From an uncultured virus (IMG/VR IMGVR_UViG_3300047181_000007) (Duplodnaviria; Heunggongvirae; Uroviricota; Caudoviricetes): a stretch of 64,000 nt of DNA. The DNA lies in the IMG/VR virus record IMGVR_UViG_3300047181_000007; one strand, written 5' to 3'. The position numbers were made by a program, and so were the translations under genes. A model generated the notes under the pieces. The model did no database searches. It was not told the DNA's origin and saw nothing but the letters and a program-made list of their open reading frames with translations. Positions 7,979 through 53,752 of the stretch are shown here, one piece after another; the first letter of the stretch is position 1; the number at the start of each line of letters is the position of its first letter.

Positions 7979-8026
7979 TTCCATTAGATGGAAACCATTG
8001 AAAACCTTTTCAGTTTATGATATAAT
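7979..8026 (+). promoter_or_regulatory. sigma70-type promoter with 15-bp palindrome just upstream and TGAAA-N4-TTTCA box over the -35
   Basis: TTCCATTAGATGGAA (7979-7993); TTGAAA-17 nt-TATAAT (7998-8026). Confidence 0.8.
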
Positions 8027-25889: not shown

Positions 25890-26456
25890 ATGGATTTTAT
25901 TCCAGAACAGTCCAGTGAAAGTAAACAAGTTCCCTATTATGAACAGGCGACCTCAGCTGAAGGCTGGCAGGGGCAGTCTACCCAAAAGACTCTCACAGCC
26001 CTGCGTTCTGAGATTACACAGTCGATCAGTCGGCTTGGAGGATTAGTGATGGGCTTCCAAAGAGGCACATTCCAAGGTACAGAAGAAGAACGGGAAGGCT
26101 TCCGCATTCATTATACTGTTGAGGCTTCCGATGGTCGGCAAGTACCTGGACGCATTGACATTGCTGCTCTACCTATCGACCCCACAATCAACTGGAATCG
26201 TGCAGACAAATCCAAGCACAAAGAATCATCGCTCAAGATGGCTCTCTATATGCTTAGAGTAGCCTTGGATGGCACATGGTTCTTACAGCAGCTCAGTCCT
26301 GGTTATGCAGCTCTTGTGCCTTTTATGTTGGGTCCAGGTAAGAAAACGATCTCTGAACTATGGACTGAGAGCTCTATTATGAACAACCTTCTACCTCCAG
26401 GTGATGATGGAGACTTTATTGAAGGAGAGATAATCAATAACAAGGAGAATAAATGA
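25890..26456 (+). CDS. Hypothetical protein
   Basis: ORF with GGAG RBS; S...I...LG, LVPFML..G.T..E. Confidence 0.7.
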   Translation: MDFIPEQSSESKQVPYYEQATSAEGWQGQSTQKTLTALRSEITQSISRLGGLVMGFQRGTFQGTEEEREGFRIHYTVEASDGRQVPGRIDIAALPIDPTINWNRADKSKHKESSLKMALYMLRVALDGTWFLQQLSPGYAALVPFMLGPGKKTISELWTESSIMNNLLPPGDDGDFIEGEIINNKENK

Positions 26457-27439
26457 AACTAATCTATTTTATACTAGTAGTATTTCTTGTTGCTTTAGCC
26501 CTTGTCGCAGTGGGAACAAGGAAAGCAAGCGCAGATGATATAAACTGCCCGACAGACACTCCAACCAGCACGCCGATCACTCCAACCCCTACCGATACAC
26601 CAGTGCCCCCTTCCCCTACACCAACTGACACGGAGATTCCAAGTGCAACGCCAACTGATACTCCAACGGAAATACCAACGCTTACAGCAACGCCGACTAG
26701 CACATCAACGGACGTTCCTACAGATACACCAACGCAGACTCCTACAGATACAGCAACAGATACTCCAGAGGCAACTCCAACGTTTACTACAACTGCTAGT
26801 CCCACAGATACGCCAGCTAATACACCAACTAGCACACCCATCACAAACACCCCAACCATAACACAGACTAAAGACCCACGTACTGAGACACCCACCATCA
26901 CTCCTAGTGATACCCCTGTTACTCCGACAGATACACCTACTCCAGTTTATACACCTTCTACGACTTCTACACCGACACGACCTTCTGCGACAGAGACACC
27001 TTATCCACCTCAACCAGCTATAGCCGCTATGCACAACCTTCCGTATCCGAGTTCGCAAATAGGTGTGATGAGCCTAAGTAACTATGAATATCAGCTTTAT
27101 CTAGGCGTGAATGCTCCTGATGGTTCCCTAATGCTCCCCAATATTGAGCGCAGTGCAGCTGTCTATCAAAACACAATATGGGTACACCGTATTTGGGAAG
27201 ATGACTGGCTTAGGGTTCGAGCTGGAGATACCATAACTATTACCATGCCTAACGACAAAGCACATACCTACAAGGTTGTCAATAGCATATATATTGCCTA
27301 TGGTGTATACCCTGAAGCAGACCGCAGAGGCAGTCCTTACCAGTATATCGCATCTTGTTATTCAGACTCTCAGGGTTGGAAAGGTGTGATATTATATCAA
27401 TTACAACCAATTAGAAATTCTCGTTCACATGCAAAATAA
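26453..27439 (+). CDS. Secreted or membrane-anchored protein: signal/TM, Pro/Thr-rich linker, sortase-like C-terminal domain
   Basis: Hydrophobic N-terminus, (TPTDTP)n, then WVHR...AGDTITI...YKVV...YIASCY. Confidence 0.65.
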   Translation: MKLIYFILVVFLVALALVAVGTRKASADDINCPTDTPTSTPITPTPTDTPVPPSPTPTDTEIPSATPTDTPTEIPTLTATPTSTSTDVPTDTPTQTPTDTATDTPEATPTFTTTASPTDTPANTPTSTPITNTPTITQTKDPRTETPTITPSDTPVTPTDTPTPVYTPSTTSTPTRPSATETPYPPQPAIAAMHNLPYPSSQIGVMSLSNYEYQLYLGVNAPDGSLMLPNIERSAAVYQNTIWVHRIWEDDWLRVRAGDTITITMPNDKAHTYKVVNSIYIAYGVYPEADRRGSPYQYIASCYSDSQGWKGVILYQLQPIRNSRSHAK

Positions 27440-27466
27440 AACTATAAACTAAATGGAGAAGATAAA

Positions 27467-27685
27467 ATGAATACGATCAGAATAGCAAACAAGCAAGGCG
27501 ATACTCCCTATACGTATGACCCCGAAACACAATTGGAAGAAGCCCGTGAGCAGTTCGATGAGCTCAAGAAGCAGGGCTATATGCTCTTTGGCGTTGACCC
27601 CGAAACCCATGAGACTACACAACTTGACCAGCTCTTCAAAGAACACGTTCAGATCGTAGCAATTCCACAAATATCTGGAGGCTGA
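27467..27685 (+). CDS. Small ubiquitin/MoaD-like protein ending in GG (copy 1)
   Basis: GD...YDP......A...FD.L.K.GY..F...IVAIPQISGG; paralogue of 32222-32449. Confidence 0.65.
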   Translation: MNTIRIANKQGDTPYTYDPETQLEEAREQFDELKKQGYMLFGVDPETHETTQLDQLFKEHVQIVAIPQISGG

Positions 27686-27686
27686 T

Positions 27687-27890
27687 ATGTTCCTTGACGA
27701 CCCAAGAAACCTTACTTGGAAATGTCATATCTGTGGTAAGGAAAGACCAGATACTGCTATCTCGGTCTACAAGAAACCGTTCTATCTTCATGGACAACTG
27801 GTGGGAGAGCAGAACATTCGCTACTGCAACGATAATCCCGACTGCTATAAAGGAGCCATGGAGTTTAGTTTTATAAAGAAAGAGAGCTAA
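27687..27890 (+). CDS. Small Cys-rich protein
   Basis: WKCHICG.ERPD...NIRYCND..DC. Confidence 0.65.
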   Translation: MFLDDPRNLTWKCHICGKERPDTAISVYKKPFYLHGQLVGEQNIRYCNDNPDCYKGAMEFSFIKKES

Positions 27891-27903
27891 AAGGAGTAAC
27901 CCT

Positions 27904-28902
27904 ATGCCTCTCATAGCGGTCAATGTAACCATCCATGGCGAGACTGGTGTTGAGGCTGAGCACACCTTCAATACAAACGCCTCTGCTGCCCATTTTATTA
28001 CAGAACACCAGCTTGTCCCTGAAGAGCGTGAGCGGAGATTGATTCATACTGAACCATTCTCAATAGGAGTGACCTATGATAGTCCCCTACATGAGCAGGA
28101 ATATGTAGACACTATTATCTGTAGAACCTGGGCATCTTTCGAGCGACATATAACTCAGCATGAGCTAGATTCAAGATGGAGAAGACTTGTAGCTATTGAT
28201 AATATGGAACCCTATCCTCCTGAGTACCCATATTATCCTGGTGGTATGCGTGGCGGTGCCTCGTTCCCTGGTGTGGCTGGTCATCAGCACGAAATACGAG
28301 CAGATATATCTGATTATAATGGGCGTATGGAAACAGTAACTCCTGGTATAGCTAGTATGGGTGCAGAGATTGCTTCGTATGAAGACGCTTCAAGGGATAT
28401 ATGGCGAGCGAATTGGCATCCAGCAGACCAGAGTCCAAATACAGCTAGGGCTGAGCAACAAGACTTAGATCGCTTCAATATGGGATGTTTAGAATCATAT
28501 CTAGGTATTGGCTACTCAGAGCGGGAGGAGAAGCGTAGACAGGAAATAAACGAGTCTCTTCAAAGAGCAGAGTCGCTTCTTAATGCCTGTCTTACAACTC
28601 AGGAAGCTGTTGAGCTTTCTCAACTTGGCACTATCACAATAGATACACCCCTTGGTCTATTCAGAATAGGTGTTGCTGGTAAGGGCTTCTCAGCACCATC
28701 GTTCAATGTGCTACACAAAGGCAGGAATTGCTGTCTGGTAATCAAAGAGAGAGGTATGATGCTAGAACTACCACACTATGACCATATTGCGATGCAAGTC
28801 CTACTTATAAAGACTAACCCCACAAAATTTCTACAAGAAGCTAATCAACAAGGTGACAGAGATGGTTTTAGACGAGCTTTCTACATGCAAAGACAGCCTT
28901 GA
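27904..28902 (+). CDS. Partner of the GG-ending protein (copy 1), with a conserved Cys/Asp C-terminal domain
   Basis: RAESLL..L...CCL...LP.YD...Q.L.....KFLQEAN; domain shared with 32450-33100. Confidence 0.7.
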   Translation: MPLIAVNVTIHGETGVEAEHTFNTNASAAHFITEHQLVPEERERRLIHTEPFSIGVTYDSPLHEQEYVDTIICRTWASFERHITQHELDSRWRRLVAIDNMEPYPPEYPYYPGGMRGGASFPGVAGHQHEIRADISDYNGRMETVTPGIASMGAEIASYEDASRDIWRANWHPADQSPNTARAEQQDLDRFNMGCLESYLGIGYSEREEKRRQEINESLQRAESLLNACLTTQEAVELSQLGTITIDTPLGLFRIGVAGKGFSAPSFNVLHKGRNCCLVIKERGMMLELPHYDHIAMQVLLIKTNPTKFLQEANQQGDRDGFRRAFYMQRQP

Positions 28903-29916
28903 GCTGGCAATTGAAGAGGACATCACTAAGAGAATAAAAGCCTTCAAAGAAGAGACAGGCTGTGATATTAGTGATATATCTATTAGTATGCGCCGCTACA
29001 AAGAGTTCGGATGGAAAGGCGCACTGAATATTGTGCAGAATGTCACAGTTGAGTTGACATACAAGGAGCTAACAATACGATGACAGCCGCAGCCGCCAAG
29101 AAAGAACGTCTTACCATGTACAGTTTGCAAGACAAGTTGGTCAAGCATGGCTTCCAACTTGTTGAGCCAGGAGATGTAACTACCTTTGCTCAACGTGGCA
29201 AGACTGTAGTGTGTGTGTTTACAGACGAAAAGAACAAGAGCTTCTGGACATCCATGTACTGGCACACCATGAATGCAGATAAGAGGCTAAAGAGTTTCAT
29301 TAGTAGTATCACTAAGTCTGGTATTGACTTCACCAGCGGTGGTAAGATAATCCCACGGACCCTTGAGCCAGATTACAAGTTCTTAGGGTATCCCATAGCC
29401 ACTACAGTGATTGCGTTCTTTAGAAATCAGGGAGGTTAGTTATGAAAATGATAAATCTGCTTAGAGAAGTAGTCCTAGCCTATGATGAATTTATGTTATC
29501 AGATATGGACACACATATCACTAATCCTAGCTGGCTAAGACTAACAGAGGCTATACACCGAGTAAGAATATACTTTCGGGAACAACGAAACGAGATTGTT
29601 GCTGGAGGAAAACGCAATGGATAGTGACGGTTATCCAACCGAGGATCTGTTAGAAGAAATCCGTAAGTGGGATGCCACGGACTTCATAGGGCTGATGACT
29701 TATATCAAGCCACTATGGAAGTACGCTAACTCTGGCTACTGGTCTGTTCGTGGACACTACTATCACCTATCTACTGCTGGATGGAGTGGCAATGAAAGTA
29801 TAATTGGTGCCATGCAAAACAACCATATCTGGTGGGCACTGTATGCCTGGTCATGGCGTGTGGGTGGTCACTATGTATTCAGATACCGAAAGATAAAGAA
29901 GGCAACCAATGGGTGA
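28853..29916 (+). other. Four hypothetical CDS (28853-29083, 29080-29439, 29442-29624, 29617-29916)
   Basis: Coupled ORFs; the last has the phage-type motif STAGWSGNE.II. Confidence 0.6.
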
Positions 29917-30676
29917 GAAATCTGGAATAGCCTGGACGGATGCAACCTTCAATCCTTGGTGGGGCTGCACAAAACTTAGTGAAGCCTGTGCTCATTGCTA
30001 TGCTGAGCGTGACTCTAAGCGCTTTGGTGGTGACTATTGGGGCAAAGATGCACCCCGTAGATTCTTTGGCAAACACCATTGGGACCAAGTATATGATTGG
30101 GACAATAAAGCAAGAAAGACTGGCTGTCTTACACGTGTGTTTTCTGGCTCCATGTGCGACATCTTTGAGGATAGACCAGACCTCAAGGAACCACGTATGC
30201 AGTTATGGGAACTGATCGAGCGTACCGAAAATCTAATATGGCTTCTACTTACCAAGCGACCAGAGAACATTATCAATATGATACCTTTCGATTGGAAATG
30301 GCACGCTATACCTATTCATGTATGGTTTGGTACAACTGTAGAGAACCAGCATCATGTAGATAGACTGATAGATATAGCTGCACTGAAAACCTGGACGGAT
30401 AATATATTTGTATCCGTTGAGCCTATGCTTGGTCAGGTAGACTTTGGTGAGTGGTGGTATGTTCCTAAATGGGTAATCGTGGGTGGCGAGTCTGGAACTG
30501 GTGCCAGAGAGATGAAACGTGGATGGATAGAGCATCTCAAGCGTATATGTAGAGAGAAGGAAATCCCATTCTTTCTGAAACAGCTTGGTGGCTTTCCAGA
30601 TCGGCGCTGCGATATGTCTAAATGGGATGCAGACCTAAGAATACAAGAACTTCCTAAAGAAATGATTGGAGGCTAG
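29909..30676 (+). CDS. DUF5131 (phage Gp37/Gp68) protein
   Basis: IAWTDATFNPWWGCTKLS.AC.HCYAE, SMCDIF, LLTKRP, SVEPML, WVIVGGESG, FFLKQLGG. Confidence 0.93.
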   Translation: MGEKSGIAWTDATFNPWWGCTKLSEACAHCYAERDSKRFGGDYWGKDAPRRFFGKHHWDQVYDWDNKARKTGCLTRVFSGSMCDIFEDRPDLKEPRMQLWELIERTENLIWLLLTKRPENIINMIPFDWKWHAIPIHVWFGTTVENQHHVDRLIDIAALKTWTDNIFVSVEPMLGQVDFGEWWYVPKWVIVGGESGTGAREMKRGWIEHLKRICREKEIPFFLKQLGGFPDRRCDMSKWDADLRIQELPKEMIGG

Positions 30677-32219
30677 AATGCCATGGTGGTTGATACTCGG
30701 CATTGGATGTTTCATAGGGCTAGTTGTTGGAGGCATATTGGGGATGCTCATAGCTAGTTGGTGCTTTGCCTCGTATAAGGATGATGAGAAGCATGGTCGG
30801 CAAGAGTGGCAGCAGCACAATTACAACGACTGGAGAGAAAACGAATAGGAGAATATATGGACAAAGAATTAGTTGAGTTTATTAGTAAGCACATAGATGT
30901 AAGCGAGGTGGAGAATTGGGATGACCCTGAAACTATCCTGAAATTGGGGGTAAAAGCCAAGCTGATAGCATCATATTCAATATCACAGGGAGTTGCGGAG
31001 GTTCTATGGATACCCGAAATACTGAGGCGCTACCTGGCGATGGAAGTACCACTAGTGGTACTGAAGGCGATAGCTCAACGGATACCAGCAGCTCCAGAGA
31101 GCGTCAAGCCCAAGCCATCTTCAAGAAAATCGGCTACTGCCCTTGGTGCGGAAGCGAAATCTCCCCCCAAGGAATAGACTTTCAGATGGAGTTCGTTGAA
31201 TGGAATAACTGTAAGACCTACTTGTGTTATGGCAGCCATAGAGATATAATCACTGACATCTATGGTTTTATTATTGAACCTCGCCAGTTTAGGAGTAAGT
31301 ACCTAGGGGCGAGAAGACTCAGGAATGTATAGGAGATGATATATGCCAAGTTATGATGCACCATCTGTCGCAAGTAACAGAGATATACCTCAAGTAATGG
31401 ACAAACTTCAGGGAGCAATTGAGAATCAAGAAAAGCTCATCGAGGAACTGAGCCAGAGAGTTGCTCCACTACTAGCACAGCCAAGTGCAGCTACTCCTGC
31501 CGAGACAGAGAAAGCAATGCAGTCTCAGTTTGGGACCAGGGTCAATGATCTGGCTGTAAGAGTGCAATCTGCCAATAAGCAATTGCGTCTTCTAATCGAA
31601 TCTATTCAAATATAGGGAGCATAAATGATACATGAAAATGCATCTCCATTGGCTGGCAAGACAGTCAAAATCAAGAAGGATGTATTTCATCCACAGTACC
31701 CAACCTTTGGTGGTTCAGATTTTATAGTCGAGGACTGGTGGGACAGAGTAGGTAGAAGTTCTTGGATGGACAATCCAGGTAATCCAGCCTGCTTTATTTA
31801 TGGTTTACGCCGTGTAGCACAACCCATGCCTTTTCCTCCACCCGATGATGAAGTGCTATATGGCAAAGTAGGTTTATTCGGTAGCTTGGTTCATATTTCA
31901 GAAATTGAAGGAGATGCAAATGGATAAAGGCTTTGGAAAGATCACCAAGGGCTATCGTGAGGGAGAAGTAGTTCTCTTTCGCAAGAACATGCCCAACAAT
32001 AAGGCTGAGTTAGCAATTGAATTGATTGCTAAATGGGGTCTTGTTTCAGCAAAGGATGATGGGGAAGATACCGCTGGTCGTCATAAACTAACTCTCATGC
32101 CAGTAAGCGAAGTTGTGGAGAGAGCTATTGAAATGGCAGACCAAGCTATTACCGAGATGGAAAAGCGGGGATGGTTTATCAACCTACCCGAACCAGACAA
32201 TTTAGCAATAGGAGAGTAA
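30666..32219 (+). other. Small hypothetical CDS (about 30678-30848 TM, 30857-31177, 31343-31615, 31625-31927, 31920-32219)
   Basis: Co-oriented ORFs with RBS. Confidence 0.6.
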
Positions 32220-32221
32220 AC

Positions 32222-32449
32222 ATGAAACATACGATGCGTGTAATGGGTCCAGAAGGCGATCTCAAGCAAATATGGGACGCCGATAACGCCGAAGAGGTCA
32301 AGGCTGCTCAGGATGCCTATGATCGTCTTATCAAGAAAGGCTATAAAGCCTTTGCGGTCAAGAAAAGTGGCGACAAAGGTGAGCTGATTACCAAGTTCGA
32401 CCCTGAGCTTGAGAAGATCATCATGGTGCCACCTATCTCAGGGGGCTAA
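32222..32449 (+). CDS. Small ubiquitin/MoaD-like protein ending in GG (copy 2)
   Basis: GD...WD......A...YD.L.KKGY.AF...FDP..EKIIMVPPISGG; AGGAG RBS. Confidence 0.7.
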   Translation: MKHTMRVMGPEGDLKQIWDADNAEEVKAAQDAYDRLIKKGYKAFAVKKSGDKGELITKFDPELEKIIMVPPISGG

Positions 32450-33100
32450 ATGGCAGACTATTACGGATACGCCACTAATAGCACAGCCACAAGCGCCACA
32501 ACTTATGGCAGTAATGCATGGACGTATTGGGCTGGTGATACTACTGGTGGCTCTGCTACAGGCAACGTCTGGATACAGTGGCAACCAGTAGGTGTAGTTC
32601 CTGTCGTCAGTAATGGACAGATGCTTACTACTGAGTATCATGTCGAGCTTGGTTCACAGCATCTACCAGCTTATGAGGTTCCTGTCCAGACTCCAGAAGA
32701 GATACAAGCTGCTGCTGAAGCTATGGCTGTTCGTGCAGCTGAAGCTCTACGCCAACAACAAGAAGCAGAACGCAGGCAACTAGAAGAAACCCGCAAGCGC
32801 AATGAGGCACAAAAGAAAGCCAATGATCTTCTACTGTCTCTCTTGGATAAAGGTCAAAAGGAAGAATACACAAAGAATCGTTGCATCACTATCTATCGTG
32901 GCACAAAGCCAAAGTGGAAACTGCTAAAGGAGCGCAGTTACAACGTTCTGGAATACGATGATAATGGTACATTGATTACTAAGCATTGTGTACAGACTCC
33001 AACTACGCCATTGGAGGACCAACTTGCAGCTCAGTATCTCTATCTACACGATTGCCCTGAGGAACTAATTAGAGTAGCGAACCATCAGAACATGCACTAA
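32450..33100 (+). CDS. Partner of the GG-ending protein (copy 2)
   Basis: KANDLL..L...HCV.....PLEDQLAAQ.L.L...EELIRVAN. Confidence 0.75.
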   Translation: MADYYGYATNSTATSATTYGSNAWTYWAGDTTGGSATGNVWIQWQPVGVVPVVSNGQMLTTEYHVELGSQHLPAYEVPVQTPEEIQAAAEAMAVRAAEALRQQQEAERRQLEETRKRNEAQKKANDLLLSLLDKGQKEEYTKNRCITIYRGTKPKWKLLKERSYNVLEYDDNGTLITKHCVQTPTTPLEDQLAAQYLYLHDCPEELIRVANHQNMH

Positions 33101-33110
33101 TAGCACGAAT

Positions 33111-33183
33111 ACCCCTATAGCTCAATGGATAGAGCGAAGGCTTTCTAAGCCTAGGGTTGTGGGTTCGAGTCCCACTAGGGGTG
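33111..33183 (+). tRNA. tRNA-Arg(TCT)
   Basis: Acceptor ACCCCTA/TAGGGGT, D arm GCTC/GAGC, anticodon loop TTTCTAA, T arm GTGGG-TTCGAGT-CCCAC; CCA is not encoded directly after the discriminator. Confidence 0.93.
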
Positions 33184-33231
33184 TTCCATCTAATGGACAT
33201 CGTACTACACGGTACAATAACTGTACAAACA

Positions 33232-33240
33232 TGGTATAAT
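33232..33240 (+). promoter_or_regulatory. Extended -10 promoter TGGTATAAT
   Basis: Precedes a two-hairpin element; no + strand ORF follows. Confidence 0.55.
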
Positions 33241-33243
33241 AAA

Positions 33244-33322
33244 TAGACACCAATGCCCTCCCTCATTAGTGTCTAAAGCCCTGGAACACCCTAGCTCAAC
33301 TCCCTAGGGTGTTTCTTTATCT
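33244..33322 (+). ncRNA. Candidate sRNA: hairpin with CCCTCCCT loop plus terminator hairpin
   Basis: TAGACACCAATG/CATTAGTGTCTA stem and GGAACACCCTAG/CTAGGGTGTTTC stem followed by a T-rich tract. Confidence 0.55.
33283..33322. terminator. Intrinsic terminator where the two genome arms converge
   Basis: 12-bp stem followed by TTTATCTT. Confidence 0.75.
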
Positions 33323-33754
33323 TTATGGTCCTCCAATGATCTTGGAGAAGAATGTCCAGAGTGAAAGGTTTGCTGGAATGACCGAGTGAATGAAGAGAAA
33401 GAAAGCTACTGCTGCCAGTAGCAACTCCTTCCAGTGCTTCACTATCCACTTCTGCGGTACTTGCTCCTGTAGTGACTTTACTAAAGTCACTTGGTCTGTG
33501 ATGAGAGACTGAAGCGTGGTGATACCCTGCATATTAGTAGTAGCTATTGTTTGCAGTTTAGTAATATTGCAGACATTCGTGTTAGTAATATCAAGTAGTC
33601 GCTCAATCTGCATAGCCAATTTCTCTTGGTCAACAATAAGACCGTCCTTACCATTCCCATAGAGTTTGACTTTTATCTCACTTACATCAACGCCAAGATT
33701 GTCAATCTTAGTCTCAACTCTAGCCAGTAATACGGATGTCCTTTCTTCTGTCAT
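33323..33754 (-). CDS. Coiled-coil + C-terminal TM protein (XhlA/holin-associated type)
   Basis: LYGNGKDGL, C-terminal hydrophobic segment; lysis-module position. Confidence 0.6.
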   Translation of the reverse strand: MTEERTSVLLARVETKIDNLGVDVSEIKVKLYGNGKDGLIVDQEKLAMQIERLLDITNTNVCNITKLQTIATTNMQGITTLQSLITDQVTLVKSLQEQVPQKWIVKHWKELLLAAVAFFLFIHSVIPANLSLWTFFSKIIGGP

Positions 33755-38188: not shown

Positions 38189-38685
38189 TATGTATCCCAA
38201 AAGTCAATACCGTTTACCTCACCAACTTCAATTCCATTGTGAAGCACTTTGAATGAAAGTGTCACAAGAGAAGCATCACGAGGTGGATCGCCACCATTAT
38301 CATCAGTGGCATGTACCATGAGTCCCTCAAAGTTCAGGTTTGCACGTTGAGTAAGAGGAGAGCCTTCATCCTGAATAATATGCCCACCACCTGTAGCATC
38401 CGACTGTGGATTGATTTTATAGGGTGTAGGGTTACTAGGCATCTGAGTGACTGTGGTGGTAGTCTGTTGTGAATTAGCAAGGACAGTGGGTGGGACAGTA
38501 CTGGTATCTGCACTGACTTGCTGTCCTACTACAACTGGACCGCCTGTTACCCTAAGATTATGGTAGATAGTCCCATTACTTAGCAGACGAATGCTTGCTC
38601 TGCCAAAGAGAACATCAGTGACTGTCGCTGGAATAAGTGCTCCAGTCTTTACGGTCTTACGAATGTCTCTACTAAGCTGGCTCAT
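38188..38685 (-). CDS. Tail tip / spike-like protein
   Basis: OB-like N-terminus; IQDEG..LTQRANLNF.G tail motif. Confidence 0.6.
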   Translation of the reverse strand: MSQLSRDIRKTVKTGALIPATVTDVLFGRASIRLLSNGTIYHNLRVTGGPVVVGQQVSADTSTVPPTVLANSQQTTTTVTQMPSNPTPYKINPQSDATGGGHIIQDEGSPLTQRANLNFEGLMVHATDDNGGDPPRDASLVTLSFKVLHNGIEVGEVNGIDFWDT

Positions 38686-41600
38686 CGTATTCCTCTCTTC
38701 CTTGTATCTGCATTCTAGCTGTCGCCTGAGCTTCAGATGCTCTAAACTCATAAGATACCGCTTCCACAACTATTGAAGCAGTTCTTGCAGATGGTACCTT
38801 ATTTTGGTCATCATAAGAGACAGTATATACATCTCCTGGCTCCAACTCAAGATCAGGTCTAATATCTACACTGTGTTTATGGGCACTTTCTAGCAGTCTC
38901 TTCAGAATAATATGAGCAGCTCTCATTGCTCCTATACCAAGGTCTGGCATACGCATCATCTTGGTAGCAAAGCCTACTACTCTGGCAAAGTTTTCATCCT
39001 GTATAGTCTTTACATCTTTTAGACCATAAATGATAGCATCACTTGCTCCACTAGAAGGAAATACATGACTGTAACTATGTGTCCTTGGTTCTCTTCCAGC
39101 AGTAACAGTAGTTCTTGTTGCGTCATACCAGAAATCTATTGACCCATCAGGCTTAGCAAACATCTCGATAGGTCGTTGCTGAATGACTGAGCTAAGTGCG
39201 CTTGTGCCATCAGTCTCAAGGTCAATATAGATTGCCTCACGCCAGTCGCTTAGATCACTCTCTCTAATATTACTGAGGATAAGTGAGCTCGTGCTAGTGG
39301 ATAATGTAATTATTAGACTGTTCTCGTAGTCAATCTCATTAAGGGCTACAGTAGTTACCCATTGACCATTATGATAGAAACCAATATTGTTTCCCATTGC
39401 CATTACTCTGAACTTCTGAACTCCAGTATTAGTAGAGAACTGGCAACTATATATAACAGTGTTAGATGGTAAACTCACAACACTATAGACAAAATTTCCA
39501 GAACCAGAGTAAGTAATATTCACTCTGATGTCCGTGTCATCCTCAAATAAAGATTTGTTCTCATAGTTGTCTGGCTTTATTTTGGCATTGAAGTCAATTC
39601 GCAGCGTTAGACTTCCAAAACTAGCTACATCGAAGCTCAGGTCAAACCCTTCGGCGTAGTCAGTAGTCTGAATATCCTGCGGAGTAGTAGTAACTGTTAG
39701 ATTAGTACCACCATGGGTATAGTCACTTGGGAACTGGCATTGTGCGCCCGATAGATCGCATATCTTTTGAACCATGTCTCCAATTGTAGTGTCGTCTTCT
39801 CCACCTGTACCCTGATACCAGTAACAAAATATTTCACCAGCACGTTCATATACAGCAAACTCACCTTCACTATGAGTAGCCTTCTCGCCAGATATGAGTT
39901 TTATTGGAAGTGTAGGGTCAGAAGCAAAATCGCCAAGCAAGCCACCTGTAACCCACACCTTGTTGGAAAGAGAGTGATAGAGTTTTCCTATTAGCACATC
40001 GGCTGAATAAATTCTACAACGATTACGAAGCCAAACAGTCGAGCCACCAGTAGTAATGAAGATTTGCCAGTCTATTCGATTAACTATGAAGTTTACTCCA
40101 CTACTAATAGTAACTATATAACCATCGTATGAGTACTCATCTGCTAGCCAGTCAAAATCTCGGCAATCAAGAGCATACCCATCCCCATAGCCTAAATCAA
40201 CATCATACCAACCCATACAGCGAAATTGATATGGACCTATAGAGTAGCTAGGATGAGCAACCTTGGTATAGTATTGGTATACATTGTCTTCCAGTCTAAT
40301 TGTTCCATTAGATGGAAAGTTTGCTGTACTCCATAATGGGTCAAATGGGATACCCTGACCAGATACGTCTTCTTCATCACCGAGTTCCTGGTATCCAAGA
40401 GTACGTGCCAGCGGAGCTTCAATAAAACCATAGATGCCACAACGCATTGAGGCTATATCGCTTGTGTACATATACCCATTAGCTTCTTCCCAATCATAGT
40501 CAAGGACTTTCTCAAAGCAACCACTAGATACACGAACCATATATAACTCGAAGTGCCCGTCCTTGTGATCGAAACGCATTTGCAAGGTATCATCAGTATC
40601 AATAACAGTGAAAGATACAAGAGCATCATCTAAAATCTGCTCAATCCCATCTCTACAAATAACTATCTGTGCATATCCAGTACGCTTGTCATATCTCCCT
40701 ACTGTGTAGTTTAGTCCATCTTCACAATGACCAACTAGACCAGTAAAAGCTCCATAGTTTGCTAAGTCTTCTACGTCATTCTTGAACCTTGCAGCTAGTG
40801 AGAAGTTGAAGGCATTATATGGACCCGTGGCAATCATAATGAATGGCTTACCAGCTTTAGGGAGCTTATAGTAACCCCAATCTTTCTCGGTTTCCCAAGG
40901 AGTATCAGCACCATAGAGAGGATAGAAGGCTCTTACTCCAGCAGTGAACTCAACTCGTGCTGGACAAAATCTTGTATCATCAGCAGAGTAGAATGAAAGC
41001 CCTACTTTCTTTATCTTCCAGCCCACCTCAAACCCATAATAGGCAGCTGTAAAATCAAACTCTACGGGGTCAGTGCCAGCAACATTGTCAAAGTAGGTTT
41101 GCTTCCAGTGTTGAGCACCAGTTGCTACATAGTCGTGGTCAACTCCTTCATCATCTGTGACTTGTATCATTATATGGATATGGTCGTTGCTATCACCTGT
41201 GTTAGGGCAGGATGACCAACCATAAGCCTTAGCATGTATGGTTGTATCTGTAATCACTGGATTATCATTCAGGGCTAGCTTGTATTGGATTTCTTCACGC
41301 ATGATAATGCCGAACCAGTGATTGGGAGTCGGCGCATCAGGCTCATAATAATTTACACCACCTTGCAAGTTCAGGTCTACAGGGGTGATACCTAGTCCAG
41401 TATTTGTATAGCCCTCATGGTCCCAAAAGTCTACTTGGAAGCTATTGGCTGCAATACAACCATTACCTACAGCAGACAGCATGGATGTGTCCATCTGCAT
41501 TGGGTCAAAACAGGCAGACTTGCCGAGGATCTCCGCATAGAATGGCATGGATAAACCAGTGAGATTCCATAAAGCCTCGTTAGTAGCAGTAAGAGTCATT

Positions 41601-42922
41601 CCCCGTCTATCTACTCCAATATCGTAGTTAATGCTATCAATAATATAGGTTGCATATTTCACATATTCGATTGCAGATGCAGTCTGTAAACCAGCATACA
41701 TTACCAGGCGGGCACCTTCAATCACCTGTGGAATGTTCTCTGGAAAATACTGTTCCAAGCCAGATCGCAGAGATAGATTGCATCTACTTAGGTCACTATC
41801 TGAATATGATTTGATGTTGTTCTCATTGATATTTACTACCACTCCAGTGCCATCAGCACCATCAAATACCCAAGTTATAGGAGCATAGCAGACACGGTTG
41901 CAGTTGCCTAGGTAGAGATTGTTACCACCTGTTCTAGCCAAGAAACGGTATCCAATATTACTTACCATCGTGTTTCGATTGACACTAAATGTTTTCCCGT
42001 TTTGAGAGAACAGCAAAAGCGAATACGGCTCAGCGCCTTCTAGATTATCCGTCCTATTGAATAGACCACAAATGTAGATCGTGTCATTATGGGTATAGGC
42101 GTTAGCAATTCTGAACTCACATAGAGACACTTGAAGGTCCGTGGGTAGAACAGTGAAAACATTACTCCATGTATCTGTATCAATATCGTAGTAAACACCT
42201 TCTACCATGCCAGATCGAGCGTTGCTCATATAGACGAACACTTTATTGTCTAATCTAGCAGCTCCAGAATGGATTGCTTTCTGTAGCATAGTCCGTGTAT
42301 CGTCTGTCTTGCCCTCTCTTATTTCTTCTTCAGTCTTGGGAGTAGGTTCAATAGCACAATGGAACATAAAACGGCTGGTACACTCACTCTTTGAAGAGTC
42401 ACTCATATACACTGGTCTGAAGCCACCCTCATCCTCCATTATCCCAATTGCTTCTGTAGGACTAATAGCATGAACAGCGTCTACAGGACAAGAAGGTGTG
42501 ATATACACACTATTGTAGGAGACTGATGTGCCACTTAGGGCAATCGAATATCGTCTTATATCTGAACCCACATAAGCATACAGTTTAGTACCTAATACTC
42601 CTGGCTTTACTGAAGTAGCATCAGCTCCACTAAGAACAGAACCTCCACTTGTACCCTGAACGGCATAATACAGTGTACTTCCAGAAACATAATAGGTTAC
42701 TAGACCACCTTGATTAACAAAGTATTCTATATCCTGTCTTACAGGGTCAATTACAATACCCTTAGCGTCTGGACTGTCTATAGGATGATTCTCTGTAGGA
42801 GTACCCTCAAAGTAAATCCGTGATGGATAGATTTCAGCCTTGATATGTGGATAAAAGCTACCATCAAGGTCGATGGCATTTCTTATTGTAGTGGTGAATC
42901 CATCTTCAGATGTTCTAGCCAT
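38672..42922 (-). CDS. Large minor tail (hub/tip) protein
   Basis: 1416 aa, two genes after the tape measure; C-terminal PDLELEPGD hub-type motif. Confidence 0.7.
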   Translation of the reverse strand: MARTSEDGFTTTIRNAIDLDGSFYPHIKAEIYPSRIYFEGTPTENHPIDSPDAKGIVIDPVRQDIEYFVNQGGLVTYYVSGSTLYYAVQGTSGGSVLSGADATSVKPGVLGTKLYAYVGSDIRRYSIALSGTSVSYNSVYITPSCPVDAVHAISPTEAIGIMEDEGGFRPVYMSDSSKSECTSRFMFHCAIEPTPKTEEEIREGKTDDTRTMLQKAIHSGAARLDNKVFVYMSNARSGMVEGVYYDIDTDTWSNVFTVLPTDLQVSLCEFRIANAYTHNDTIYICGLFNRTDNLEGAEPYSLLLFSQNGKTFSVNRNTMVSNIGYRFLARTGGNNLYLGNCNRVCYAPITWVFDGADGTGVVVNINENNIKSYSDSDLSRCNLSLRSGLEQYFPENIPQVIEGARLVMYAGLQTASAIEYVKYATYIIDSINYDIGVDRRGMTLTATNEALWNLTGLSMPFYAEILGKSACFDPMQMDTSMLSAVGNGCIAANSFQVDFWDHEGYTNTGLGITPVDLNLQGGVNYYEPDAPTPNHWFGIIMREEIQYKLALNDNPVITDTTIHAKAYGWSSCPNTGDSNDHIHIMIQVTDDEGVDHDYVATGAQHWKQTYFDNVAGTDPVEFDFTAAYYGFEVGWKIKKVGLSFYSADDTRFCPARVEFTAGVRAFYPLYGADTPWETEKDWGYYKLPKAGKPFIMIATGPYNAFNFSLAARFKNDVEDLANYGAFTGLVGHCEDGLNYTVGRYDKRTGYAQIVICRDGIEQILDDALVSFTVIDTDDTLQMRFDHKDGHFELYMVRVSSGCFEKVLDYDWEEANGYMYTSDIASMRCGIYGFIEAPLARTLGYQELGDEEDVSGQGIPFDPLWSTANFPSNGTIRLEDNVYQYYTKVAHPSYSIGPYQFRCMGWYDVDLGYGDGYALDCRDFDWLADEYSYDGYIVTISSGVNFIVNRIDWQIFITTGGSTVWLRNRCRIYSADVLIGKLYHSLSNKVWVTGGLLGDFASDPTLPIKLISGEKATHSEGEFAVYERAGEIFCYWYQGTGGEDDTTIGDMVQKICDLSGAQCQFPSDYTHGGTNLTVTTTPQDIQTTDYAEGFDLSFDVASFGSLTLRIDFNAKIKPDNYENKSLFEDDTDIRVNITYSGSGNFVYSVVSLPSNTVIYSCQFSTNTGVQKFRVMAMGNNIGFYHNGQWVTTVALNEIDYENSLIITLSTSTSSLILSNIRESDLSDWREAIYIDLETDGTSALSSVIQQRPIEMFAKPDGSIDFWYDATRTTVTAGREPRTHSYSHVFPSSGASDAIIYGLKDVKTIQDENFARVVGFATKMMRMPDLGIGAMRAAHIILKRLLESAHKHSVDIRPDLELEPGDVYTVSYDDQNKVPSARTASIVVEAVSYEFRASEAQATARMQIQGREEYDEPA

Positions 42923-43342
42923 TTAGTTCTTCTCCACAAATGCTACAGGGATTAGGTAGTAGGCAGATACCCCATCAAGGACAGTACATAATGGTTGCAT
43001 GGTTGCCTCTCCAGTGAAGTAAACATCGTGAGTTGCTCCAAAGTGATCGGTTAGACGGATAACGTCTGTTGGTGTGCCAAAAGCATTGGAGTAAGCAAAG
43101 AATGTATCAAAGTCTGCACTATTTCCCCACGCAGTGGTACTACCAGTGGTACCAATTGGCATAAACAAGGTGTACTTCCATGACTTTATGACAGGACCCG
43201 CTTGCTTATCTGTCTTACCGCCAATAGTTAGCTCGACACTATCCATACGCTGAAGTGTTGGAGCCATTTCAACCGTCTTGAATTGTTTCTCATAGGTTGT
43301 GCTAAGGCGACTATCGTTTAGTTTGATGTAGTTGACTGCCAT
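42923..43342 (-). CDS. Distal tail (Dit)-like protein
   Basis: Directly after the TMP; 139 aa; paralogous domain at 62273-62686. Confidence 0.6.
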   Translation of the reverse strand: MAVNYIKLNDSRLSTTYEKQFKTVEMAPTLQRMDSVELTIGGKTDKQAGPVIKSWKYTLFMPIGTTGSTTAWGNSADFDTFFAYSNAFGTPTDVIRLTDHFGATHDVYFTGEATMQPLCTVLDGVSAYYLIPVAFVEKN

Positions 43343-46300
43343 TATTGCCTCACTTGTCCATCAACAATCTCGATGACCTTTTCTTCAAGTAGATCGCCAC
43401 CAATATAGATTGGGACTACAATACGCTGGATTGAACCGCTTCTATTTCTATTAGATGGAATTACTGTGGTGCCCCAAGGGTCTGCAAATCCATGGGCACC
43501 ACCAAGAGGAGTAATATCAACTCGTTCTCCTGAAGATACTCTTATGAAAGCAGAGTCACGTGGATAGCCAGGTGGAACTATATAGTTACTAAGACCAGTC
43601 TTATGTCCTTGTCCTACTGGACCTTGATCTGGTATAGGTGCTTCAGTGCTTGGCACATAATTAGGTATAGTAGTACCACTCTTGAATAATTCTGGTAGAT
43701 GGTCATTTACCCAATTCAAGCCAGTAATAAGCGTATTTATCATTGTTACTTCATCATCAGTAGCTACCTTCATTAGTCCAGTATTGAGAGCTTGCTGTTG
43801 ACCTATGAGCATTAGCTTATCATTGTCATCCTTCATTTGTTCAGCATAAGTAGCCTGAACTGCGATAGATGCAGTCTGTAGTTTCTGTTGTTCGATGAAG
43901 TAGGCACGAGATAAGTCGGTCTGTTGCTTTTGTAAGTCAAAACCCATCTCGTAGAACTCTTTCTGTTTGGCAAGTTGTTGTTCTTGGAAGTCCTTTTGCT
44001 CCTCATACTGTCGTTTCTGCAAAGCAAAGCGCTCATCTTCCAGTTTCCACATCTCTTTCTGGCGATTCTTGGTCTTCTCAATTTGCTCGCTTTCCATATC
44101 ATGCAGGGTAGTCTCACGTCCCATCTGGCGCTCAGCTAGTCGGCGTTCACGTCCTGTCATAAAGCGGACATTCTCTCCAAAGTCTTGCTGTTGCCAGCCC
44201 CACTGCATGTTGCGGACCTGTCCCTGATATGACCAGTCCTCTTTAGTCCACTGACGCTGCATATTCATCTGTTGCTGTTGCAAACCCATATTCTCGTAGA
44301 ACTGGCGTGATTGCATCTGTAGACTTTGCTGTTGTGACTGGAAGCCCCACTGTGCCTGTGCATAGGATAGATTTCTCTGGCGGTCTTCAATACCCCAAAA
44401 GCCACCAGTACCCTGAATATTGAAAGCCTGTCCAGTACGTGGGTCTGTGGGATTGTAGTTGCCAAGCCCAATACCAGTCTGGAACGCCATTGTCATTGCT
44501 TGACCTTGTTGCTGGACACCAAGTTGAGCTATTTGGTATTCATAGGTCTGCTTATTCTGTAAGAGTTGGACACCCCATGAACCACCATAAATCTGTCCAT
44601 TAGGACCAGCGATACCATAGATAGCAGCTCTAGCAGCATCAGTAAGCTGCGCTCCACCAGCCATCATTTGTCGTGCTTGAGCTTCACTAAGCACACCACC
44701 TGTCATACCCTTGAACATGGATGTTCCAAATATCTGAGCACCTTGTGCAAAGGCTGAAGAACCACCACGCTGTAATCCTGTAGTGCCCCATGCCATACCA
44801 GTGATATTGCCACCAACACCAATGTCCACATTAGCCATTAGATTATAGAAACTTTGCTGTTGAGCAGGCATTCCACCAGCCATAGCTACTCGTGCCATTG
44901 TAATTGGATCAGTATTCATAAACTTTTGGGCTTGGCTAAGTCCTTGAGCGCCATACTGTTGTGTAATCCCAATCATGGTACCAGCGAAAGCATCTACCTG
45001 TTGCTGGCTAGCCATATAAGGTGCTACAGCACTAACTTGATTGACTATCTGCTGTGCTTGTGCTCCACCTATAGTAGATGCAGCCATCGACTGCAAGGTA
45101 CCACGCATAGTTTCGGGCAAATTCATAGCAGCGGAAGCCTGTACTATATCTGTCTGTCTAGTCCAGTTAGACATCTGCGTAAGTGCCTGATAGAGCTCAG
45201 ATGGACTTGAGTCTGCCTTGATTTGAACCATATTACTAACATCAATACCCGCCGCCTGAGCATTTGAAACTACCTGACTCTGCTGTTGGAAGAGTGGATA
45301 ATTGGCTGAGCGTTCAAGAGCGTCCATTTGGGCAGTCTTCTGTGCAATATCACGGCGTGCTTTCTGAGCTGCTGCATCCATTTCTACATGGTAGTACCTT
45401 CGTAGATGTGGATTAGGAATTGGTACGTTTTCAGTAACTAGCCCTGTTGGTATACCACCAACACCAGGAACGTATGTAACTGTGGGAACAGTCACGGCTG
45501 TTGTTCTTTGCGCTGGTGGATTTCCAACTGCTCTTGACAAAATTGGAAGTTGTCTTTCCTCGCCACGTGCAAGTGAAACTGCATCTAGATAACCATACGC
45601 TTGCGCTTGAGCATACGGCATATTGGCTATACCCTGGTATGCCTGTGTCATGGTGACTTGCTGATACCGATTGAGATTCATCGTACCAAATAGCTGCTCA
45701 TACTGCATTACATTCTGCTCTGTGAAAGGTAGTCGAGTAGCCTGGACTGCCTGAGCTGCTAGCGTATCTAATGACACGCCTACCATTTCGGTCTTTGTCA
45801 TTGGAATTAGGGCATTGTAGCTCATGCCAGCTGCTGATAGCTTTAGGGCATTTTGAGATAGAAGAGTAGGGTCTAGTCCACTGTAGATTGCTTGAGTTGC
45901 TAGTGCAGATACCGACATGTACAGTGCTTCAGATGGCATTCCAGTCTCTGCCTGTGCCTGAACAGCAGACATGCCACCCTCCATTTTCTTGTTATAATTA
46001 TTCATTATGGCAGCTAACTGGTCGGGTAGTATTCCCTTCAATACATAAGCACTCGGCTTATAGGTCATTGTCTGTCCACCAGCAGCCCCAACTCTACCTG
46101 GATCGCCAACCTTTACTCCCCAAATATCAGTAGCTAGAGTAGTTTTCAGATAAGCCGATAAAGTATCACCTTTACCTAATGAAGAAGCTCCAGATATAGC
46201 AGCAGCTTGTGGGTTAGAATAGCTTCCATAAGTCTGTGCAGCTACTACACCTACTGCACCAAGAACAGCAGCTGGTCCTACCACAGAACTAAAGAAGGCA

Positions 46301-49300
46301 GACACACCAGCCATTCCAGCTCCAGCTTGTGCAGCAACACCGCTAGCATACAGTGCGCCTGCGGCACCAGCGGCAGCTCCTAAGCCAACACCTTTGATGT
46401 CTCGCATCCAAGGTGGCATAGCTGCTGACAAAGCATCCATTCCCGCTTTAGCAGTCCCTTGGTACTGTATATAGGATTGTAGCTGCTTATAGGCAGCTGC
46501 GGAGAATGGTTCACCAGCCGCAGTACCCATAATTCCACCAGCGTATTGACTTATTGCAGTTTCATATTGTTGTGCCTGTTGTTCACCATAAGCAAGTTGT
46601 TGCATTGGGAATGAGGCAAGGTGACTCAAATACATTAGACCCCATCCACCGATCAAACCACGGAAGAACTTATTGACATTGGCTTTACCACGTGCAACAG
46701 GTCCTCCCATACCCTCTTGAACCATCCCACCATATTGCTGTACCTGATCTGCGGTAAGTTGTGGACCTCCAGGTTGTGCTGCTGCTGTCAATACACCCAT
46801 CGCTTGGGCGGCGTTATACTGAACCTCGCCTGCCCGTATTTGAGCATAACCCTCACTAACTTTAGCTTGAGCAGCTGCCTTAGCTTGGGGCGATAAACCC
46901 TTCTCGCTTAGTTCTGTAAGTCCAGTAGTTACTTTCTGGACTGCTTCTTGCATAGTCTTCAAGCCTTCAGCAGTTTCTTCGTAAACTGTCTTACCACCCT
47001 TGCCTACTCTGGTCTTACCAATTTCTTCTTCTCTTGCTAATTTCTCGGCTTGCATACCCCAAAACATAGCATGACCAGGAGTTCCTGGCTGAACCAATGC
47101 AGGAGCACCGCTTACGCCACCACCACCCATAATAGCGCCAGATAATTCTTGGCGAGCCGTTTCTGAGACTCCAAGACCATATAGCACTGATCCTTGTTGT
47201 GCTGCTGCGACAGCTTGGTTGAGTCTATAAAGCTGACTTGGTATACTTCTTTGTGCAATAGTTGCTGCAAACTCAGCAGGACGAGCCTTGGCAAACTCAC
47301 CAAGCGCTGTACCGCCAGTCCATTCTGGATGACCAGCTGCGACTGCGAAGGAAGTAACCTTTTCCTGAAAGCCAGCAGCCCATTTGATTTGTTCTGGTGT
47401 GATTGCATGTAATGCAGCTAGACCAGCTTCGGCTGTTTCAACTGCACCTGTTGAAGTTCTTCCACCACCAATATGACTAACGACTACCTCAAGTCCCTTG
47501 GTAAATACTTGCTCTAATCTCTTGAAGAAGTTATCTTCCCAATCAGCAACTGTAGTGCCACCACCAGGAATCCCACCTTCCATACCACCACCCCCACCAG
47601 TTATCCTTGCAGCACCTCCCCTCACACCTACGAAACTTCTGACATGACCTTTAGGTACACCTATTGTGCTGATTATGTCTGCTAGTTTGCCAAGCATACC
47701 AGGAGCATTAGCGCCTACGGTTGCATACTGGACTATTGTGTCGATCAGCTCTTCCAGTAATCGGGGGTTGCGCTGAGTCTCGATACCAGTCTTGATGGCT
47801 GCAAATATATCTTCTACCCATGCTTCAGGTTCGATCTGTCCACCCTTCATAAAGATAATCTTGCCATTCTCAACTATAGGTGAGGCATGACCAGTACGTT
47901 CAGATTCCATCATTGGAGAGATTTGCTCAACGTCAAACTTACCTTCGTTGATAAGCCCACGCCATTTACCAGCAATTCTTTCAGTTTCCTTGCGTGCAGC
48001 TTTTAGTGTTGGTCCTTCAGTGCCTTTCTTTCTGCCACCATCAATCCATGCCTTATATTCCACCATTAGCTTAGGACCGAACATGCCACCTTCGCCACTC
48101 CATTCGGCAGATGAGTACAGCATTGGTTCAATAACATCAGCAAATCTCTTGATAGATGCACCAGCTTTTGCAGCTTTCATCATTACAGCATAGGTAGATG
48201 CTTGAATGGATGCATAGGGGCTTAGGACTGATTGACTGTAGCGTTTTATCTCACCAAGGAATAGTCTTTCTTCGCCACCGATCATCCTTGTTCCTAGAAT
48301 ATCTGGTGTACCGGTGGCAGTAAGATTGACACCTTCTGCCTTCATATCTCTGGCATACTGAATGAACTCTTCGTTACTAGTAGCACCAGCTAATTTTGTA
48401 AGGCTAATTCCAAAACCCTGCTTCATACCAGTAAATACTTCACCTGATACCATCCCCCAATCTTTCTTGATCTGTGGAATTGCGCCAGCTTCAAAGACCT
48501 TGCCTTCTTCCATGCGAATCTCCTGCATGGCATCAGTCTCTTTTACGTCATCAATGATAAGTTTATCTTCAGGTTTGTTGGGGTCTAGTCCAAAGACATT
48601 TACAAGGACCAACTCCTTCAATGTCTTTCGATGGATAGCTTCCACTGTAGACATTCGCTTGCCTTCGTAGATTGTATTTCCCTGATAGACACTTACGACT
48701 TTCGGGTCATCGAATGCTAAGCCGCCCATCATGCTGCCACGTAGCTCCAGCTTATTCTTGATAACTTCACTGATGTACTGTCCCTTGAGTTCAGACTTGC
48801 GAGCTGCGGTAAGTACAGCTCTACCAATAATATCAGCCTGCTCTGGAGTAATAGCTAGTGTAGATAGAATAAGCTGTTGCTGTAATGTGGCACCAAGCCC
48901 AACACCAATACGTTGCTGAGCCATGGTATAAATGTCAAGGGCTTCTGGAGGAGAAAGAGGTCCATATTTCCCTACAACAGCTTTATAAAGTGCGATAACA
49001 CTTCTAAACTCAGGTTGGTCCATGTAGGTTCCATAGGCTACATCCTCACCTCTGCCGAATAGATCAACTGGTGAAGTCTTTATCATATTGGCAATCTGGA
49101 ACGAGCGTCTTCCACCTGAAGTTAGAGTTTCTACTTCCTTAGGTGGCTTTCCAAATAGACCAGCAGTACGAGCATAGCCAGCTATGATAAGTGCTTTACC
49201 AATAGGAGATTTGCGAATATCCCATCCTTCAATGGCGGGAAGACCTGAACCAGTCTCAAATAATGCAGCTGAGACTGAACCTAGAGCTTTGATGCGCTCG

Positions 49301-53460: not shown

Positions 53461-53752
53461 TGTTCTGTCCTTGCTGTCCTTCTTGTGCGTCAGCAGCAGC
53501 ATTTATAATAGAATAAAGTTCTTCTACTTCAGTGACGACACCAACTTCTAGAAGCCAGATGTGAGGTTGTTCTAGCACACCACCCGCAACTAAAGGTATG
53601 CCGAGTTTCTTGCACTTCTTCCACAGCTTTAGAGCTTCAGGCATTTCGGGAGGTTCTTTCCGAAGTCCTACCTTTAGCTCATTCAGCCCTCCGTAGTATT
53701 CTTGGAGAGCTACACGTAGTTCATTTAGTTTCCCCTCTACAACGCTTCCCCC
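53423..53752 (-). CDS. Tail assembly chaperone extension (gpGT-like), reached by -1 frameshift
   Basis: Lies in the -1 frame of the upstream gene; GGGGGAA slippery site at 53746-53752. Confidence 0.7.
   Translation of the reverse strand, partial: GGSVVEGKLNELRVALQEYYGGLNELKVGLRKEPPEMPEALKLWKKCKKLGIPLVAGGVLEQPHIWLLEVGVVTEVEELYSIINAAADAQEGQQGQNNETRPRLDSGIR

Follow-up and report, generated by a model that had tools for sequence, protein, structure and literature searches.

A Gly-Gly-ended small protein and its Cys-domain partner form a conserved gene pair in uncultured tailed phages, resembling a stripped-down tagging or sulfur-carrier module

Here, we explored a two-gene unit that occurs in two diverged copies (modules A and B) in IMG/VR virus record IMGVR_UViG_3300047181_000007, an uncultured tailed phage; the analysis covered 64 kb (hereafter, the window) of a contig of up to 81 kb. 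Each copy encodes a small protein that ends in Gly-Gly (GG) and a larger partner protein with a conserved C-terminal domain. Both the GG and a Cys/Asp/Asn set in the partner are conserved and under selection, and the two genes make up a dedicated pair that is tightly coupled and naturally fused. The unit looks like a stripped-down tagging or sulfur-carrier pair.

All four genes were found at the coordinates given in an earlier note made from the DNA sequence of the window. The two small proteins align from end to end (BLASTP, 27% identity, E 8e-11) and both terminate in P.ISGG followed by the stop codon, which bears out the paralogy claimed in that note. Small protein A also matches the family hidden Markov model (HMM) over profile positions 2-75 (E 2e-21), and a longer open reading frame (ORF) for small protein B, from 32171, is unlikely because homologues begin at the MKHTMRVMG position. 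Partners A and B have unrelated N-termini and a common C-terminal stretch (residues 208-316 of A and 112-213 of B; 28% identity, E 5e-6), as that note had stated, and a single small ORF (27687-27890) separates small gene A from partner gene A. Between the modules, the small proteins and the partners are about equally diverged (26-28% identity).

The pairing extends well beyond the window. Loci were searched with a 12-row alignment of the small protein, and the inspected sets comprise 24 viral loci, 13 loci from metagenome-assembled genomes (MAGs) and 30 archaeal loci; 27 viral loci were fetched from IMG/VR, those beyond the 24 distinct ones being same-contig duplicates or truncated or partial matches. 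In the 24 distinct viral loci, the partner domain (detected by HMM) is encoded directly downstream of the small gene; locus L028 has the reverse order, with the partner upstream. Of the 13 MAG loci, 11 have an adjacent partner and all 13 have the GG. In two jumbo-phage contigs from different samples (L017, 435 kb, and L018, 231 kb), the small protein is fused in frame, past the GG, to the partner. Apart from the partner, all-against-all clustering of the neighbouring ORFs revealed nothing common to more than 4 loci. Conservation of the neighbourhood, proposed as a check in the earlier note, thus holds for the viral and MAG loci and extends to natural fusions. Furthermore, distances among the small proteins correlate with those among the partners over 36 pairs (Mantel r 0.59, a value reached in 0/999 permutations). 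This co-divergence shows that the two genes are co-inherited and is compatible with pair-specific recognition. Five complete phage genomes contain one module copy each and, therefore, the duplication seen in the window is not the rule.

The small-protein family is large. A profile search of 1.84 billion representatives (clustered at 50% identity) recovered 2585 members at E<=1e-3 and 1059 at E<=1e-10, and a word-based search retrieved 10 close relatives of small protein B, all with the terminal GG (10/10), in one case as GGRR; for small protein A and partner A, there are no close relatives in IMG/VR. Among cultured or deposited phages searched with tblastn, two records alone contained the small protein (Virus Rctr197k and an uncultured phage of 595 kb), and none the partner domain. 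The small protein of Virus Rctr197k (KX853510; locus L030) consists of two family domains, ends in PG rather than GG, and is followed by two partner paralogues of 268 and 245 amino acids; a CRISPR repeat region is also annotated in this record, ~1.2 kb ahead of the module (coordinates 3324-3578 and 4815-7986). Tandem two-domain forms of the small protein exist elsewhere as well (P0038, P0073, P0154). In public databases, the proteins of the pair are annotated as hypothetical, and at the level of titles and abstract openings we found no description of the phage pair in the literature.

In the window, the GG codons overlap Shine-Dalgarno (SD)-like strings (GGAGGC-TGA-t-ATG in module A and GGGGGC-TAA-ATG in module B), and in most viral loci they read GGAGG or GGGGG, 0-12 nt ahead of the next start codon. 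The GG ending might then be a by-product of an overlapping ribosome-binding site (RBS), and its resemblance to ubiquitin-like tails a coincidence, a caveat that the earlier note had raised against its own claim. The overlap is real in both modules, yet GG is also kept without it. All Bathyarchaeia relatives analysed (28/28) retain GG, although a distance of 16 nt or more separates them from the next same-strand ORF (in 27 of them, this distance is 44 nt or more, or there is no such ORF). Chloroflexota loci retain it across gaps of 15-49 nt and with non-SD codons, such as GGC GGC; the ending is encoded as GGT GGC, too, and it persists in locus L019, where a separate SD follows the stop codon. 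In a census of the 148 best matches whose alignment reaches the end of the profile, GG stands at the end of the domain in 144 representatives, exactly terminal in 122, with 1-8 extra residues in 17 and with longer extensions in 5 (22/148 with residues after it, extended and fused forms included); of the exceptions, two end in AG and two in xG. Given that GG is maintained without a coupled gene, with non-SD codons and with residues following it, selection must act at the protein level. The archaeal relatives and the extended forms thus settle the caveat in favour of the tail, which withstands the refuting condition set by the earlier note itself (loss of GG in homologues that lack an overlapping RBS), and its origin as an RBS artefact is refuted, with next to no probability left to it.

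The domain common to the partners spans ~100 residues. In an alignment of 27 partner sequences (partner B numbering), C180, D190 and A210 are invariant, and N211, P187 and L127/L128 nearly so; the motifs picked out by eye in the two window copies (A..LL...L, C, P..D, L..AN) correspond to conserved columns of this alignment. The Cys and Asp columns are invariant in all three partner alignments (27/27, 37/37 and 36/36 sequences), where the Ala-Asn, Pro and LL columns are near-invariant and no His is invariant, so that the conservation of the partner Cys expected from the window is borne out in 37/37 sequences. In the AlphaFold2 model of partner B, the predicted local distance difference test (pLDDT) score is >90 for residues 82-216 and <50 for residues 1-60. 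A 50-residue helix (82-131) is followed by a compact alpha/beta domain (134-216), which is predicted to contain a short helix, then four strands that run up to Cys180, a pair of helices from Asp190 onwards, and a last strand after Asn211.

Searches for known relatives of the partner came up empty. There is no match in Pfam, PHROGs, NCBIfam, PADLOC or PDB sequence profiles, and no Foldseek match to the PDB below E 0.87, the query being the model rather than the globular domain alone. Neither Pfam nor a PDB sequence profile, Foldseek or VIA gave a UBC, RWD or Prok-E2 match, the globular domain not having been searched by itself. BFVD yielded one match at E 7.9e-4 and weaker ones, including a protein of Agrobacterium phage Atu_ph07 (E 0.012), all uncharacterised; two of the BFVD matches have the same lengths as the two 'hypothetical' partner copies of Virus Rctr197k. 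One partner homologue is named 'undecaprenyl pyrophosphate synthase' by JGI, a designation that looks spurious. Accordingly, the suggestion of the earlier note that the partner Cys forms a thioester or acts as a protease or ligase found no backing among known folds and families, whether E2, protease or other, and the alignments provide no invariant His.

The N-terminal regions of the partners vary. Residues 1-70 of partner B are disordered and Ser/Thr/Trp-rich, with WxxW motifs, and viral partners have one to four such motifs in a Ser/Thr-rich segment, although by the strict pattern partner B has 2 and partner A has 0. Instead of this segment, partners from Chloroflexota and Rubrobacter start with a strongly hydrophobic helix (Kyte-Doolittle 2.3-3.1). 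Because the transmembrane (TM) helix of the Chloroflexota form is replaced by the Trp-rich segment, we infer that the partner is placed at the membrane. Some cellular partners carry C-terminal pentapeptide repeats; in three of them (P0167, P0168 and P0169), the partner domain occupies the N-terminus, with a Pro-rich linker between it and the repeats (PF00805). In another cellular protein (P0165, NCBI Chloroflexota), a small domain devoid of the last strand and of GG is joined to a TM-anchored partner, which may reflect a frameshift or a deletion.

For the small protein, the AlphaFold2 model of the B copy, built from the 12-row alignment (mean pLDDT 84.1), has the order beta-beta-alpha-beta-beta-beta. 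Its Foldseek matches belong mainly to the ubiquitin superfamily (UBX, PB1, ubiquitin, SUMO, RA, FERM-F1), with E values of 0.02-0.2 and template modelling scores of 0.35-0.56, and the VIA list is likewise dominated by weakly scored beta-grasp domains. The predicted strand/helix order and the composition of both match lists are, thus, consistent with the beta-grasp fold proposed in the earlier note, if weakly scored. At the level of sequence families, the small protein has no match in Pfam, PHROGs, NCBIfam, PADLOC or PDB sequences. In particular, 0/58 family members match PF02597 (ThiS) at E<=1, the window, archaeal and Chloroflexota members also lacking a match, and NCBIfam MoaD/ThiS models are equally silent (58 plus 27 members tested across Pfam and NCBIfam). 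An hhalign comparison of the family with 16 canonical ThiS/MoaD sequences taken from these genomes gave an alignment of just the final 15 columns, comprising the hydrophobic strand and PP.sGG (probability 49.8%). On present evidence, the family is MoaD-like in tail and context and is not a member of PF02597. One Atlas cluster of the family has been automatically named 'putative ThiS'.

Several features recall known sulfur carriers and modifiers. MoaD/ThiS, Urm1, archaeal SAMPs and TtuB are beta-grasp proteins of ~70-90 amino acids with a hydrophobic last strand that leads into PP.(S/T)GG at a free C-terminus, as predicted for the small protein. MoaD and MoaE, the two subunits of molybdopterin synthase, are encoded by adjacent, often coupled genes for a GG-ended beta-grasp protein and a partner of ~100-150 amino acids that receives the tail, an arrangement similar to that of the phage pair, whose partner may receive the tail as well. 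There are clear differences, too: the phage and Chloroflexota small proteins are paired with a Cys domain and not with MoaE, ThiG or an E1, and the phage partner, which has no MoaE match or fold match, possesses an invariant Cys and variable targeting regions.

Cellular relatives provide further context. Among the MAG loci, one lies in an integrase-bearing prophage region of Planctomycetaceae, and nine Chloroflexota loci lie among ordinary metabolic genes. The partner domain is present in 43/201 Chloroflexota genomes sampled (21%; 42/200 without the unpublished G191), in one to five copies, and two Chloroflexota genomes have two small-protein copies each. In three loci (L037, L041 and L042, from Ktedonobacterales/Chloroflexia), a gene for a protein resembling flavin mononucleotide (FMN)-dependent dehydrogenases is located directly upstream of the pair, with MFS, RecJ and HemN-like genes downstream; this link may reflect shared synteny of related genomes rather than function.

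In Bathyarchaeia, the small-protein family is found in 15/151 genomes, in up to six copies, and the partner domain in 0/30 loci. Within 1.5 kb, 18/30 Bathyarchaeia loci encode a 4Fe-4S polyferredoxin (Fer4), aldehyde:ferredoxin oxidoreductase (AOR), a molybdenum cofactor (MoCo)-binding domain, MoaE, or a TOBE-type molybdate/tungstate transporter (ABC/SBP); on one archaeal contig, 80 nt separate the small gene from a MoaE gene upstream, and genes for ThiF and a class-V aminotransferase are close by. This setting corresponds to that of the MoaD genes linked to AOR that Iyer, Burroughs and Aravind described (PMC1779556), and supports a MoaD-like descent. Together, the chromosomal copies in Chloroflexota and the tungsten/molybdenum cofactor context in archaea point to a MoaD-like origin and a general function, and not to a phage-specific decoy.

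What, then, might the pair do? To our knowledge, whenever the terminal GG of a characterised beta-grasp family is strictly conserved, the tail either undergoes adenylation by an E1-like enzyme or is freed through cleavage. Our tentative preference, which we consider possible rather than probable, is that the small protein is a MoaD-derived modifier that is activated by an E1 of the host and handed to the cysteine of the partner, an E2-like acceptor placed by its variable N-terminus. In such a scheme, the small protein would be a beta-grasp protein of MoaD-like descent, with the free C-terminal Gly-Gly as its functional end. The tail would first be adenylated by a ThiF/MoeB-type E1, presumably supplied by the host since the phage encodes none, and would then pass to the invariant Cys of the partner C-terminal domain as a thioester, with the Asp and Asn beside the Cys assisting the transfer. 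The variable N-terminus would place the pair, probably at the membrane, by means of WxxW repeats and a long helix in phages; Chloroflexota would use a TM helix for this purpose, and some cellular forms their pentapeptide repeats. The steps of the scheme (binding, activation and thioester formation) are inferred, as are the involvement of a host E1 and membrane localisation. Two general features of conjugation chemistry would accommodate this scheme: an E1 suffices for the conjugation of Urm1, archaeal SAMPs and Thermus TtuB, and E2 catalysis relies on Cys, Asn and Asp and requires no His.

No E1, E2 or JAB family was detected by Pfam among the 88 ORFs of the window, in agreement with the earlier note, and E1 (ThiF) and JAB are missing from complete relatives, too: 0/5 complete phage genomes carrying the module encode a ThiF family protein, and 0/5 encode Prok-JAB. 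In the one record out of 10 that does contain ThiF, a 407-kb provirus, it is located ~140 kb from the module.

Several observations weigh against activation and transfer to the partner Cys. Cellular genomes, too, show no E1 linked to the pair; neither protein has a sequence family match in Pfam, PHROG, NCBIfam, PADLOC or PDB profiles; outside the tail, the small-protein family does not align with ThiS/MoaD; a few family members end in AG, PG or xG; a membrane-anchored partner fits no known E2; and the archaeal relatives lack the partner, so that the small protein can function without it.

If the tail is indeed activated and passed to the partner Cys, the pair would represent a ubiquitin-like system of just two small genes, relying on an enzyme of the host, that is abundant in environmental phages and present in Chloroflexota chromosomes, and it would be relevant to the origin of E2-type conjugation from sulfur-carrier chemistry as well as to the host targets that phages modify. 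Taken further, the modifier could hijack the E1 of a sulfur-carrier pathway and be relayed through the Cys of a mini-acceptor onto targets, probably at the membrane, as a form of tagging without an E1 of its own that would be an evolutionary intermediate between sulfur carriers and E1-E2 ubiquitin-like conjugation, would occur in thousands of uncultured phage lineages, and would allow two orthogonal pairs to coexist in one genome; we regard this broader scenario as unlikely. On a conservative reading, two large protein families, neither of them covered by a Pfam, PHROG, NCBIfam or PADLOC model, gain a defined partner, a set of critical residues (GG; Cys, Asp, Asn) and a hypothesis open to test.

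The same absence of E1, E2 and JAB from complete phage genomes can be read as an indication that no activation takes place. The small protein would then be a stoichiometric subunit, chaperone or regulator in a purely non-covalent complex, its flexible GG tail plugging a pocket that the Cys, Asp and Asn line. In molybdopterin synthase, the tail of MoaD is inserted into MoaE. Translational coupling, natural fusion and co-divergence all fit such a complex. However, in known beta-grasp families, a near-absolute free terminal GG is tied to activation or cleavage of the tail, and where a cytoplasmic domain has an invariant Cys, this residue usually serves in chemistry or binds metal. Overall, we consider a non-covalent complex doubtful, though only slightly less likely than the preferred scheme.

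Rather unlikely, in our estimate, is a sulfur-carrier pair, in which the tail would be adenylated and thiocarboxylated as in MoaD, ThiS, CysO and TtuB, and the partner Cys would take part in sulfur transfer, through a persulfide or acyl-disulfide, to a small molecule or nucleic acid. The PP.SGG tail that aligns with canonical ThiS/MoaD and the cluster name 'putative ThiS' speak for it, as do the archaeal members next to MoaE, ThiF, AOR, Fer4 and molybdenum/tungsten transport genes, which recall the AOR-linked MoaD genes of PMC1779556. By contrast, the partner has no family or fold match among sulfurtransferases, MoaE, ThiG, PP-loop or rhodanese proteins, clustering of neighbouring genes revealed no cofactor or thiolation genes adjoining the pair in phage loci, and sulfur transfer has no evident need for a variable N-terminus with Trp repeats, a TM helix or pentapeptide repeats.

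The earlier note further suggested that the pair is perhaps a decoy or otherwise counters host ubiquitin-like (Ubl) defences, which would here mean jamming Bil, Bub or type II CBASS. Indeed, the pair is carried by phages, moves between phage genomes that are not related to one another and is located among early genes, and Ubl-based defences exist. Such defence operons (Bil, Bub/6E, and type II CBASS with Cap2/Cap3) encode E1, E2 and a JAB peptidase, none of which is found in the window, the conserved neighbourhood or the 5 complete phage genomes. PADLOC gave no match for 7 proteins at E<=0.1, and Prok-E2_B was detected in 0/301 Chloroflexota genomes, its control also being detected nowhere. 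The chromosomal, multi-copy pairs of Chloroflexota, in ordinary metabolic neighbourhoods, weaken the suggestion, and the archaeal cofactor neighbourhoods likewise speak otherwise, making a role in counter-defence improbable. More improbable still is an addiction unit of the toxin-antitoxin kind, with a small neutraliser encoded upstream of a larger effector. This would explain a translationally coupled, mobile two-gene unit that occurs in multiple copies per genome and has no conserved neighbours, but it leaves the invariant terminal GG without a reason and sits poorly with the partnerless archaeal small proteins in cofactor contexts and with the lack of any PADLOC or Pfam toxin family match.

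A phage precedent of a different kind is TAPI (tail assembly protein I) of phages lambda and T1, a ThiS/MoaD-like beta-grasp protein with a conserved C-terminal Gly that is encoded beside TAPK, a JAB/NlpC peptidase thought to act on this Gly (PMC1779556). TAPI resembles the small protein in being a phage-encoded beta-grasp protein with a C-terminal Gly next to a partner, but differs in its place in the tail assembly cluster, its fusion to a C-terminal domain, and its JAB/NlpC partner; the present module is encoded among early/DNA-metabolism genes and involves no peptidase family.

Within the window, both modules (Table 1) are on the plus strand, amid early/replication genes identified with Pfam (SSB, DnaB-like helicase, AAA_24 and DUF5131), and the structural and lysis genes are on the minus strand, which from 33.3 kb on encodes a GH25/SH3 lysin and an SU10-type adaptor and contains structural ORFs of very large size. 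The Zn-ribbon-like ORF of module A has no Pfam match above noise; small ORFs with Cys motifs occur near 10/37 modules scanned, so this gene is an occasional accessory and not a core part.

Table 1. Features of the two modules in the window
Feature	Position	Strand	Remarks
Small protein A	27467-27685	+	72 aa; C-terminus ...AIPQISGG-stop; from the ORF list
Cys-rich Zn-ribbon-like ORF (CxxC ... CxxxxxC)	27687-27890	+	67 aa; between small A and partner A
Partner A	27904-28902	+	332 aa; long unrelated N-terminus; conserved C-terminal domain at ~residues 207-319
Partner A C277 codon	28732-28734	+	Invariant Cys column
Partner A D293 codon	28780-28782	+	Invariant Asp column; A313-N314 is the Ala-Asn motif
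Small protein B	32222-32449	+	75 aa; C-terminus ...MVPPISGG-stop
Partner B	32450-33100	+	216 aa; start codon abuts the small B stop codon
Partner B Cys180 codon	32987-32989	+	Invariant; end of predicted strand 175-180
Partner B Asp190 codon	33017-33019	+	Invariant; start of predicted helix 188-201
Partner B Asn211 codon	33080-33082	+	Near-invariant

Directly before module A, at 26453-27439 (+), is a 328-residue protein without a Pfam or PHROG match that has a hydrophobic N-terminal segment, ~200 residues of Thr/Pro/Asp-rich repeats (TPTDTP...) and a C-terminal globular part. The DUF5131 (phage Gp37/Gp68) protein is encoded between the two modules, at 29909-30676 (+; E 2e-56). Two giant ORFs of the structural arm, at 43342-53502 (-; 3386 aa) and 38672-42922 (-; 1416 aa), have no Pfam match at E<=1e-4, and a NADAR-domain protein is encoded close to the start of the window, at 643-1083 (+; E 1.5e-26). 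A gene for tRNA-Arg (anticodon TCT) is located at 33110-33184 (+), 10 nt past partner B, where the plus-strand block gives way to the minus-strand block; it is the only part of the 27000-33500 region with DNA similarity to deposited phages.

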